NCBI GenBank assembly: GCA_951828515.1
Contig: OX639992.1
Location: 1,706,561-1,770,560, forward strand
From: an uncultured Poribacteria bacterium
Lineage (GTDB): Bacteria > Poribacteria > WGA-4E > WGA-3G
Length of the DNA stretch: 64,000 bases
Direction: 5' to 3'
The notes below the pieces were generated by a model. The model was not told the DNA's origin and ran no database searches. It worked only from the letters and a program-made list of their open reading frames with translations. The position numbers and the translations under genes were made by a program. Positions 23,520-25,599 of this stretch are shown here, piece after piece (within the stretch, counting starts at the first letter, position 1; each line of letters starts with the position of its first letter).

Positions 23520-24035
23520 TCAATGCAGAACATTCGCTAACTTTCCACCACAGCGCGCCGTCTTAATCTCAAACGATTTGCCCCGGAAATGGACTTTTGA
23601 TTGGCTTTTGCTGAGTTGTCTGACCTCCGCTCTACTAATCCCATTATGAAATAAAACGGGATAGCAGACGCTTTTAACACTCCGCGGCGTGTAATCAATG
23701 GCAAAAGCAGCTCCGGCTTTTAACTGTTCCACTGCTTCTGATGCGTCAACATTACCGCCACCCTTGAGTTCTATTGGAACTACAATAAAGTTTTCTGTAT
23801 CATCGAAGTAGAAGAGAACGCACTCACACTGATTTTCCCCTTCTTGTCCACTCGGAAATACTGCGTCTAAATCCACGACAACTCGATCATTTTCTGAGAT
23901 ACCGGTTAGGTCTGCGCTACATCGCCCGCGTCTGAATGAGTTCCCGTTAAAAAGACTTTCTCTACCTACCTTATCCCGGATATTCTCAAGAATTTCACTC
24001 CTGCTCAACCTCGGTGCCTCCTGTTGCTTCTTCAA
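23520..24035 (-). CDS. Small PD-(D/E)xK-like protein of unknown function, partner of the upstream ATPase
   Basis: The only in-frame starts are TTG (24035 or 24008). The TTG at 24008 is preceded by AGGAGG with an 8-nt spacer. The candidate nuclease core is VVVDLD...VLFYFDD...FIVVPIELKGG (D ... E-x-K). It overlaps the ATPase stop by 14-41 nt. Confidence 0.55.
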   Translation of the reverse strand: MKKQQEAPRLSRSEILENIRDKVGRESLFNGNSFRRGRCSADLTGISENDRVVVDLDAVFPSGQEGENQCECVLFYFDDTENFIVVPIELKGGGNVDASEAVEQLKAGAAFAIDYTPRSVKSVCYPVLFHNGISRAEVRQLSKSQSKVHFRGKSFEIKTARCGGKLANVLH

Positions 24036-25470
24036 TTTGGGTTCGGAGGTCCACCGAACGATTGTAGAGTTTCTCAGCTACTTCTCCATACTCCTCCGGT
24101 TCTATGCCAGCGATGCGTTCAAATGGAATTTCTTTTACTGGTTCGCTTTCACGGAACCACCACGCACCAACCTCTTCCTTCGTCAACCAAGTTTCCGGTT
24201 CTGTTTTATTTTTTTCCAGTTTCATTACTTCACCCTCGCGAACCAAATTGCCAATTTGCTCAAGGAGCCAGTCGCTATGCGTCGTGATAATCACGCGGAC
24301 ACCAGCTCGAACCAAACGGGCAAGGGTTAGGGCAACCTTAGTTTGGGCAGCGGGGTGTAGATGGGCTTCAGGTTCTTCAATGACGAGCGTATCATTAGGT
24401 TGAATAATTCCACGTAAAAACAAGACAAGTGGGGCGAGTTCCGATACCATTGATGATGACCTACTCATTGATAGAGATTGCTTTGCCTGCTGTGGATGGT
24501 AACGGAATTCAGGGAATCCCGCTGCAGGTTCTGAAACTCTTATCTCTCCACGCAGCACATTTGTCTCCAGTGCTTCGGCGATCTCAAGTATTCTACCCGA
24601 GGACCTGTTTCTTACCTTGTAATTAATAATCTGTTTTAGAAAGTCCGCTATCACTCCTGAAAACGCTGGAACTTCAGACAGAGTTTCCAAACCGATACGG
24701 CTGTTGACAAAATCTATGAGAGAACTAGCAATCACACGACGGCTCTGCACGATGCCACCCCGAGCAGCAGGTAAGTAATGCAATTGCGAAGTCTCCCGCC
24801 CAGAAACACGAAAAAGTCGCATAAGATCTTCAAAATCCAGTGTTTCTTCCGGTCCCTCACCAGTCCCTGGTTTAAGAACTATGTCCTTGTTAATAAAACC
24901 GTTTACAATGGAATTGGAGTCAGAATCGTGCATGAGGTCAAAAGACCACAAGCACTGATCTCCTTCACGGACGTTTAGCGAAACTTCCATTTTATTCCGA
25001 GCATCACCGGTGAAGCGTATCAACTCTGAAATGGATTCCAAATCAAAACACCGTTGGAGTTCATCTTCAAAGGCTGTAGATTTCTTGAGATTAGATTCTA
25101 ACCAAGACCGCATCTGATCGGGTAAATCTGAAAACTTGAAGGGTCGTCCATGTGTATTCAGTTTTTCGAGCATTTCCATAGTTTCTACCTGTAGATCTAC
25201 CTGTTCTTGAATCTCCAGGGACCGACTTCGAGCGCGGTAAGCGAACCTTAAGTAAGAACTGGCCCTAGATGACCACGGAAATTGCGAAAACCCCTCAAAA
25301 CTTTGGTATAATGCATAGATGAGTGCGGCGAGATATGTCTTACCGGTATTGCTCTCACCCACAAAAACAGTCAGCGGACGCAGATCTATCTCCGCCTTTT
25401 CTATCGGTCCAAAATTCTCCACTGCAATATGGATATCTGGGTGCTGCCGTCCATGCTCGGTTTTTCGCAT
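23995..25470 (-). CDS. ABC/OLD-class (AAA_15/AAA_21-like) P-loop ATPase
   Basis: Walker A (VFVGESNTGKTY), a long helical insertion, a Q-loop-like YLPAARGG, Walker B (DTLVIEEPEAHLHP) and an H-loop (VIITTHSDWL). Confidence 0.8.
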   Translation of the reverse strand: MRKTEHGRQHPDIHIAVENFGPIEKAEIDLRPLTVFVGESNTGKTYLAALIYALYQSFEGFSQFPWSSRASSYLRFAYRARSRSLEIQEQVDLQVETMEMLEKLNTHGRPFKFSDLPDQMRSWLESNLKKSTAFEDELQRCFDLESISELIRFTGDARNKMEVSLNVREGDQCLWSFDLMHDSDSNSIVNGFINKDIVLKPGTGEGPEETLDFEDLMRLFRVSGRETSQLHYLPAARGGIVQSRRVIASSLIDFVNSRIGLETLSEVPAFSGVIADFLKQIINYKVRNRSSGRILEIAEALETNVLRGEIRVSEPAAGFPEFRYHPQQAKQSLSMSRSSSMVSELAPLVLFLRGIIQPNDTLVIEEPEAHLHPAAQTKVALTLARLVRAGVRVIITTHSDWLLEQIGNLVREGEVMKLEKNKTEPETWLTKEEVGAWWFRESEPVKEIPFERIAGIEPEEYGEVAEKLYNRSVDLRTQIEEATGGTEVEQE

Positions 25471-25503
25471 TGTTTTTTCCTGACACCGATGAATTTTAAA
25501 CCA

Positions 25504-25532
25504 ATTATACGTCTATTCCTACCTATTTGCAA
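25504..25532 (-). promoter_or_regulatory. Sigma70-type promoter candidate (TTGCAA-17-TATAAT) for the ATPase cassette
   Basis: Minus-strand TTGCAA (25532-25527), a 17-nt spacer, and TATAAT (25509-25504), about 34 nt upstream of the ATG at 25470. Confidence 0.55.
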
Positions 25533-25561
25533 CGAAAAATGGGCGAGAATGAATCCCGCCC
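25533..25561 (-). terminator. Rho-independent terminator candidate after the LamG gene
   Basis: The minus strand reads GGGCGGGATTCATTCTCGCCC followed by ATTTTTC. Confidence 0.5.
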
Positions 25562-25599
25562 ACCTCACTTAGAACAAACAGTGGATAGATATGCCAACA

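Follow-up and report, generated by a model that had tools for sequence, protein, structure and literature searches.

Two experimentally validated phage defence systems and one computational candidate are the closest described counterparts of the locus treated here, a two-gene cassette on the minus strand of a 64,000-nucleotide stretch from an uncultured Poribacteria bacterium (contig OX639992.1, positions 1,706,561 to 1,770,560; called the window, and numbered below from its first nucleotide). PD-T4-4 was selected functionally, for resistance to T4, and sits in a defence locus resembling an integrative and conjugative element (ICE) (Vassallo 2022; PMC9519451). It is listed as an AAA_15/P-loop ATPase with a PD-(D/E)xK nuclease (PMC10952713; bioRxiv 2025.07.10.664194). 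WonAB, of the WASA-1 prophage of V. cholerae, joins an OLD-type ABC ATPase to a "variant PD-(D/E)xK" protein, and defence needs both genes (PMC12137116). It is abolished by the substitutions K34A, R182A, E300A and H333A in WonA, which include Walker A, Walker B and H-loop mutants, and by K71A in WonB. WonB is toxic when overproduced, only in excess of WonA, and this toxicity depends on WonA and its ATPase activity. WonAB defends by lysis-independent abortive infection, in which translation is arrested and genomic DNA stays intact, and WonB is predicted to dock on the C-terminal extensions of dimerised WonA. The same authors place WonAB as close kin of the "OLD-ABC ATPase + novel REase" operon of Krishnan et al. 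2020 and as similar to PD-T4-4 (all PMC12137116). The combination of abortive infection and translation arrest is known only for WonAB. The third counterpart, PDC-M47, is a "phage defence candidate" of PADLOC-DB v2. As far as we found, it is a computational candidate only, and no description of "PDC-M47" turned up in the searchable literature.

The cassette in the window has the same organization. Its A component is an OLD-like ABC ATPase of 491 amino acids (aa) with an ATG start (23995..25470, minus strand), and its B component is a 162 aa protein with a TTG start and the predicted fold of a PD-(D/E)xK nuclease (23520..24008, minus strand). We consider it quite probable that the two form a defence module against phages or other mobile elements, belonging to the PD-T4-4 / PDC-M47 / WonAB class. 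Defence activity, complex formation, trigger and substrate are attributed to this subfamily by analogy. A first-pass annotation of the window, made from the sequence, had proposed an unnamed and uncharacterised variant. The architecture is not unnamed, because PD-T4-4 and WonAB are described and experimentally validated; PDC-M47 has it too. At the level of class, then, the pair falls among systems that already have names. The cassette is a divergent member of a described class rather than a new type of system, with a nuclease too divergent for the existing models.

The resemblance to PD-T4-4 covers gene order, with A followed by B on one strand, abutting or overlapping. It also covers an A protein that is an OLD-like ABC ATPase of ~460-490 aa without a fused nuclease, and a small PD-(D/E)xK B protein with the motif order D, C-D, (D/E)-x-K, Q-L. 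The two differ in that the window ATPase is only ~22-27% identical and its insert does not align with that of E. coli PD-T4-4_A. The window B protein has 162 aa versus 198-210 aa in PD-T4-4_B, goes undetected by any PD-T4-4_B model, and belongs to a family with a conserved 3+1 cysteine pattern that PD-T4-4_B lacks. Finally, the window cassette is chromosomal, whereas PD-T4-4 is found on an ICE, plasmid or prophage. WonAB is likewise a two-gene operon of an OLD-type ABC ATPase and a small variant PD-(D/E)xK nuclease, carried on a prophage instead of at a chromosomal site. Judged by spacing alone, K34, R182, E300 and H333 of WonA likely correspond to K44, R237, E366 and H398 of the window ATPase, and K71 of WonB to K82 of the window nuclease. 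The docking of WonB on the WonA C-terminal extension also has its parallel, in that the C-terminal extension co-varies with the nuclease among the Poribacteria cassettes (see below). PDC-M47 is linked to the window through PDC-M47A, the second-best match of the ATPase, and through PDC-M47B models, which match most relatives of the nuclease.

The ATPase carries a Walker A motif (G38-ESNTGK44-T45), the sequence Y232-LPAAR237-GG, a Walker B motif (L362-VIEE366-PEAHLHP) and an H-loop (I394-ITTH398-SD). In an alignment with 58 homologues, the residues of these motifs do not vary, K44, R237, E365/E366 and H398 included. Pfam assigns it to AAA_15 (5e-27) and AAA_21 (3e-10), and also to AAA_23, and no TOPRIM, HNH or other nuclease domain was found in it in the Pfam and PADLOC scans. 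The first-pass description of an ABC ATPase of the OLD/PARIS kind with no fused nuclease therefore holds. Among its 129 PADLOC matches, the best is PD-T4-4_A (PDLC04033, 3.3e-38; PDLC04032, 6.4e-29), followed by PDC-M47A (PDLC04664, 1e-32, 111.7 bits) and AriA (2.2e-28), with NsnB, HEC-02A, Old, GajA and PtuA lower down. The predicted model of the ATPase has medium confidence (pLDDT 66.9), and for that reason it was used for fold-level neighbours alone. These are the retron Eco8 effector, Septu and retron PtuA, SMC heads, OLD, RecN and Rad50. Conservation is very uneven along the protein. Against 120 homologues, identity is 80-97% over residues 21-60 and 73-93% over residues 341-480, while the insert at 61-340 has 19-67%. 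By analogy with the characterised systems, the hypervariable insert is likely a sensor surface and the conserved C-terminal extension (421-491) is likely the docking site of the effector.

The related systems PARIS, Septu, Gabija and OLD share the ABC ATPase core, AriA matching over its full model and GajA, Old and PtuA more weakly, and they share the logic of a sensor ATPase with a nuclease effector. Membership in any of them is rejected because the effector fold is wrong: it is TOPRIM in AriB, OLD and GajA and HNH in PtuB, whereas the window effector has a predicted PD-(D/E)xK fold. For PARIS, the ATPase match is AriA-like, but the partner is a PD-(D/E)xK protein and not an AriB TOPRIM/DUF4435 protein. 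For Septu, the small protein gave no HNH (PtuB) match, and its leading fold matches are restriction endonuclease (REase)-like. For OLD and Gabija GajA, there is no TOPRIM at the C-terminus of the window ATPase, which ends at residue 491 with a short helical extension, and the Old and GajA models match its Walker B/H-loop region only.

The small protein belongs to a large family that has gone unnamed. It has no match in Pfam, NCBIfam, PHROGs, PADLOC models or PDB sequences, nor by tblastn in the phage and plasmid collections; the first-pass annotation had not recognised a named family in it either. A PADLOC scan of the pair is accordingly split: the ATPase matches PD-T4-4_A and PDC-M47A, and the nuclease of the window matches nothing. 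At 50% identity, an exhaustive profile search recovers 816 family clusters when the cut-off is E<=1e-3 and 223 when it is E<=1e-10. Full-length members nearly all have 150-170 aa, and the annotation of the cluster members looked up is never better than "hypothetical protein". The small open reading frame is not a chance one, because there are 184 close homologues in addition to the 816 clusters.

An AlphaFold2 model of the small protein, built with 62 sequences, has pLDDT 94.5 and pTM 0.91. Its predicted topology runs alpha(3-14), hairpin, beta(42-46), beta(63-68), beta(74-82), alpha(89-104), beta(118-121). The top Foldseek matches in the PDB, weak as they are, are almost all of the restriction endonuclease fold, namely NucS/EndoMS, EcoO109I, BsmI, BspD6I, Bse634I, Card1, Can2, Cap4, MUS81 and cap-snatching endonucleases, with a few unrelated folds further down the list. 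In a viral structure library, UL24/UL76, VRR-NUC and PD-(D/E)xK proteins are mixed with a helicase, Rpb5 and many unnamed matches. The expectation of a REase-like fold in the first-pass annotation is thus borne out by the leading matches.

Residue conservation was followed in the window protein and 127 diverse family representatives (n=128). The residues kept are C30 (in 125), D46 (104), D48 (104), C61 (120), D/E62 (127), E80 (127), K82 (120), Q95 (125) and C153 (123), so that none of D/E62, E80 and K82 falls below 93% of the 128 sequences. In the window, the signature reads D46-x-D48, C61-E62 (in "CEC"), E80-L-K82 and Q95; position 62 is D in most relatives. On the model, D/E62 lies at the start of core strand 2, E80-x-K82 in strand 3 and Q95 in the next helix. 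The assignment of the E-x-K motif is right, because this placement is the canonical PD-(D/E)xK arrangement. The catalytic core had first been read as "VVVDLD...FYFDD...ELK". Its D46/D48 and E80-x-K82 hold across the family, the FYFDD aspartates do not, and the conserved acidic partner is E62. That the small protein adopts the fold of a PD-(D/E)xK nuclease and has the full active-site signature is well supported by model and alignment.

The homology of this family to the B proteins of the known class is seen through intermediates. When the 129 members of a broad nuclease alignment (A2) were scanned singly, PDC-M47B was matched by 80 (best 2.7e-7) and PD-T4-4_B by 11 (best 3.1e-5). The PDC-M47B matches to relatives are weak and cover the catalytic core alone (~residues 26-107). 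One relative, the Poribacteria protein P0120 (57% identity to the window nuclease), matches PDC-M47B at 3.8e-3; of ten relatives scanned individually, three gave no match and the others 1e-4 to 1e-2, the window nuclease itself giving none. Against PD-T4-4_B in PADLOC, the window nuclease has no match at E<=1. A tblastn search of plasmids and phages with the ATPase retrieved genuine PD-T4-4 systems and one intermediate (loci are cited here by our own L numbers). The genuine ones are on the E. coli IncX1 plasmid CP057079 (L012; PD-T4-4_A 2.9e-260, PD-T4-4_B 6.1e-108), on the 4802 bp E. coli Col plasmid NZ_CP051743 (L010; PD-T4-4_A 3.2e-123, PD-T4-4_B 1.1e-43) and in the P2-like Vibrio phage 1.202.O of the Peduoviridae (L124; PD-T4-4_A 6.4e-185, PD-T4-4_B 6.5e-18). 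The intermediate, on an Enterococcus plasmid (L011), matches PD-T4-4_A at 1.1e-65 and PDC-M47B at 1.8e-7. In hhalign comparisons, the A2 profile aligns with the Enterococcus B protein at 92.6% probability (E 4e-7), with C-D, E-L-K and Q in register. It aligns with the Vibrio phage PD-T4-4_B at 87% (E 4e-6), with D, C-D, (D/E)-x-K and Q-L in register, and with a 20-sequence profile of E. coli-type PD-T4-4_B at 40% (E 2.9e-4), with all four motifs in register. These alignments support homology of the small-protein family to PDC-M47B and PD-T4-4_B. On the ATPase side, the window protein aligns end to end with the Enterococcus PD-T4-4_A-like ATPase at 22% identity (E 3e-19), and with E. coli PD-T4-4_A around Walker A near the N-terminus and over the last 190 residues.

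In the P2-like temperate phage, the genuine PD-T4-4 pair lies between the repressor and the integrase, with an 8 nt overlap of the two genes (L124:2026-4057), and the arrangement resembles that described for WonAB in the WASA-1 prophage. On the Col/Rop-type plasmid of L010, the pair is the main cargo. Klebsiella plasmids of 4.26 kb and 7.9 kb also gave tblastn matches to the ATPase. Small plasmids may be an under-appreciated vehicle of PD-T4-4.

The association of the two genes is conserved wherever the family was followed. An AAA_15/AAA_21 ATPase of ~420-520 aa lies directly upstream of the small gene in L001-L009, whose small proteins range from 81% to ~26% identity. The same holds for all 31 loci from species-representative genomes and for other intact loci, mostly with an overlap of 1-14 nt, as the first-pass annotation had expected of homologues. 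The genome scan for these loci covered only the Poribacteria-level subfamily of the nuclease, and the 31 comprise 29 from Candidatus Poribacteria, 1 unclassified and 1 from Longimicrobiales. Close homologues with a named source are likewise from Candidatus Poribacteria. Poribacteria are a phylum best known as sponge symbionts.

The start of the nuclease gene is placed by its homologues. The frame is already open from a TTG at 24035, but the close homologues (n=184, 161-165 aa) begin nine codons later, at the TTG at 24008. From there, the gene overlaps the ATPase stop by 14 nt. L001 and L002 keep this TTG; in remoter relatives the codon is ATG or GTG. A Shine-Dalgarno-like AGGAGG (24017..24022, minus strand) stands 8 nt ahead of it within the 3' end of the ATPase gene; its counterpart at that position is GGGAGG in L001 and GGGAG in L002. 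Elsewhere in the family, the loci checked have overlaps of 14, 8 or 1 nt, except L006, where a gap of 8 nt separates the genes. Overlaps and motif fit translational coupling of the nuclease to the ATPase, which is probable. The two overlapping frames, the TTG start and the AGGAGG were all in the first-pass annotation, and they are confirmed by the sequence and the homologue starts.

The history of the cassette in Poribacteria can be followed at one shared locus. In at least 12 Poribacteria species, the order TPP enzyme - LamG - LamG - [A-B] - TPR - GFO/IDH - ADH is retained. The flanking proteins are 85-97% identical to those of the window (TPR 69-86%), while the ATPase is 57-65% and the nuclease usually 70-80% identical. 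Compared with its flanks, the cassette is evolving far more quickly. Nuclease identity tracks that of the ATPase C-terminal extension (421-491) best (r = 0.91); for the insert, r = 0.62. This co-variation fits the docking model of WonAB, with the reservation that it is a correlation partly expected from shared phylogeny. In L062:2438-4361 (MKWU01014614.1), the flanks are as in the close clade, and identity is 92% in the ATPase core, 58% in the C-terminal extension and 36% in the nuclease. By this comparison, extension and nuclease appear to have been replaced together as a unit. The closest relative found, L044:4969-5280 (Ga0209754_1000303), has flanks at 88-98% and an intact ATPase of 490 aa at 84%. 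An in-frame deletion of residues ~28-113 has removed the entire catalytic core of its nuclease. It looks like a case of effector lost and sensor kept.

Other copies at the same chromosomal locus are disrupted. In L023:2965-5011, an insertion of ~570 bp splits the ATPase, and in L036:1540-3084, the ATPase has lost residues ~171-300 and the nuclease has a frameshift; errors in assembling these metagenome-assembled genomes (MAGs) are possible in both. Tandem divergent cassettes occur in L018:3746-8775, L024:3746-7603 and L028:3550-7664, the pair in L028 being seen from the sizes of the open reading frames only. The second nuclease of the tandem loci is ~33% identical to that of the window, and the second copy in L018 looks interrupted. 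One MAG has two unlinked copies (L033, L041). A sister clade that has the TPR-GFO-ADH block does not have the cassette. In Poribacteria, the cassette is dispensable and dynamic and behaves like an accessory gene set.

The cysteines of the nuclease set its branch apart. The window protein has C30, C61, C63, C115 and C153. C30, C61 (beside the catalytic acid) and C153 are conserved at 95-98% across the family, and most members have a fourth cysteine at position 18, 25 or 115, in the window C115. E. coli-type PD-T4-4_B retains only the cysteine of the "CD" motif. Cas4c or Cas4 models match 2 of 129 relatives, and the cysteine spacing is unlike that of Cas4. The pattern suggests a metal-binding site (perhaps Zn or Fe-S) specific to this branch of nucleases. 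A more elaborate proposal, which we put forward tentatively and think rather doubtful, is that the family is a metal- or Fe-S-bearing branch of WonB/PD-T4-4_B in which the three conserved cysteines and the shifting fourth make up a metal site of structural or regulatory use, the C-terminal extension and the nuclease are a swappable effector unit and the ATPase insert is a diversifying sensor. If so, a modular sensor/effector architecture would be maintained on the chromosome in Poribacteria.

The mechanism we envisage is drawn from the characterised systems. The ATPase would dimerise head-to-head around two ATP sites and serve as sensor and regulator, with its variable insert (61-340) contacting the trigger and its C-terminal extension (421-491) holding the nuclease. 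A and B are obligatorily co-expressed from one promoter region, with translational coupling probable, and the weak coupled TTG start would keep a potentially toxic nuclease sub-stoichiometric to the ATPase. Once an infection cue is sensed, ATP binding or hydrolysis by A would license B, and the licensed B would cleave host and/or phage nucleic acid and so abort the infection. The precedent of WonAB suggests RNA or translation as the target; DNA is also possible.

The same pair of genes could be read in other ways. Two overlapping genes in one operon, one of them for a nuclease that may be toxic, are also what an addiction module looks like, in which the ATPase would restrain a toxin nuclease and the main role would be stabilising the genomic region rather than phage defence. 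The Pfam label of AAA_21 is "putative AbiEii toxin, type IV TA system" (TA, toxin-antitoxin), the deletion of the nuclease core beside an intact ATPase in L044 is a typical fate of a toxin gene, Col-type plasmids of 4-5 kb have genuine PD-T4-4 pairs as their main cargo, and WonB is toxic when overproduced (PMC12137116). That toxicity, however, requires WonA and its ATPase activity, and therefore simple sequestration is ruled out for WonAB. A large ATPase with a hypervariable insert suits a sensor more than an antitoxin, and the window cassette is not on a mobile element, all of which makes a toxin-antitoxin role improbable. Still less credible is a vertically inherited housekeeping pair for DNA repair or recombination, with an SMC/RecN/Rad50-like ATPase and a NucS/EndoMS-like nuclease. 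In its favour, the cassette keeps one chromosomal site amid metabolic genes in at least 12 species of Poribacteria, NucS/EndoMS repair nucleases top the Foldseek list of the nuclease, and SMC, RecN and Rad50 heads are among the neighbours of the ATPase model. But the nearest profile matches of the ATPase are defence ATPases, not repair ATPases, and the rapid divergence of the cassette against its flanks and its absence from the sister clade are hard to square with housekeeping. The cassette is also disrupted or deleted in L023, L036 and L044, occurs in tandem, and is found in at least three contexts, some beside restriction-modification or IetAS genes. We reject this reading because of the decay, the duplication and the rapid divergence.

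Membership in the PD-T4-4 / PDC-M47 / WonAB class has itself to be weighed against several awkward results. The PDB matches of the nuclease model are weak (E 4e-3 to 0.1) with low TM scores of ~0.3, and every PADLOC, Pfam, NCBIfam and PHROG model fails to match the window nuclease. A Poribacteria-only profile (A1) reaches neither PD-T4-4_B nor the Enterococcus B protein, and since only the broad A2 profile connects them, the link of the nuclease to PD-T4-4_B rests on the intermediate sequences. The ATPase scores 130 bits against PD-T4-4_A, in two stretches, and genuine members score 220-860 bits; it is for this reason a distant member of PD-T4-4_A. Moreover, the cassette of the window, like that of many Poribacteria species, occupies a fixed chromosomal site among metabolic genes, with no defence island or mobile element. 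Some of these results would also suit an independent system that converged on an ABC ATPase plus a REase-fold protein and works by a distinct mechanism, for instance with a metal- or Fe-S-dependent nuclease and a trigger and target of its own. The window B protein is undetected by all existing models, is shorter than the ~200-210 aa of PD-T4-4_B, and keeps C30, C61, C153 and a fourth cysteine where PD-T4-4_B retains only that of "CD", and the family profile reaches only 40% probability against the E. coli profile. On the other hand, homology of the A proteins is clear, the B family is linked to PDC-M47B and PD-T4-4_B, all four of its catalytic motifs falling in register, and gene order and overlap are identical. 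Common descent is the simpler account, and we give convergence little chance.

Taken as a divergent branch of the known class, the family has a value that is mainly practical, with no new principle of immunity. A ~160 aa nuclease family unseen by Pfam, NCBIfam and PHROGs, and mostly by PADLOC, is now tied to PD-T4-4 / PDC-M47 / WonAB, and the tie would improve the annotation of defence genes in Poribacteria and in further phyla that have been little studied. As a natural experiment, the Poribacteria series could help to map the sensing and effector-docking parts of such ATPases.

The surroundings of the cassette in the window are metabolic. A convergent TPR gene flanks it on one side and two LamG genes on the other; the first-pass annotation had named the TPR gene and one LamG gene. 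The upstream LamG gene is closed by an intrinsic-terminator-like hairpin, GGGCGGG-ATTCATT-CTCGCCC followed by TTTTT (25535..25561, minus strand). RNAfold gives -20.5 kcal/mol for 25530-25580, and a simple terminator scan of the region did not have this hairpin among its listed sites. Directly after the hairpin and T-run comes a candidate sigma-70-like promoter, TTGCAA-17-TATAAT (25504..25532, minus strand), with 10 of 12 consensus matches. The proposal that the cassette has its own promoter after the terminator of its neighbour is favoured by this being the best site of the region with the hairpin preceding it, but promoter-like sites there number 5 against 2.6 +/- 1.9 expected, about twice the frequency in shuffled sequence, so the evidence is weak and suggestive. 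The GC content of the cassette (0.44-0.48) is uninformative because it is barely under that of the flanks (0.45-0.56).

Besides the shared locus, there are at least two further conserved chromosomal contexts. Most of the 81 neighbour proteins scanned from 18 other contexts are metabolic, with defence genes beside the cassette at particular loci. In L003:1-4297, as in L004 and L005, a HEC-01A-like ABC ATPase, IetA (7.5e-73) and IetS (8.9e-37) lie directly upstream of a cassette of 42-44% identity, and L003 alone of the three has a DDE transposase downstream. By its gene content, this neighbourhood is a small defence island, and the genome that carries it seems poribacterial. Type IIG restriction-modification enzymes accompany divergent cassettes in two Poribacteria genomes, directly adjoining in L037:5557-8697 (1.4e-235) and ~1.3 kb upstream in L042:70-2166 (8.3e-175), and L028 has a mad3-like ATPase beside the cassette. 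In L002:4497-6172, in a different Poribacteria context, the cassette is closely preceded by an AAA_15 N-terminal fragment of 92 aa and a DDE transposase, which may point to an earlier rearrangement or to another ATPase now degraded.

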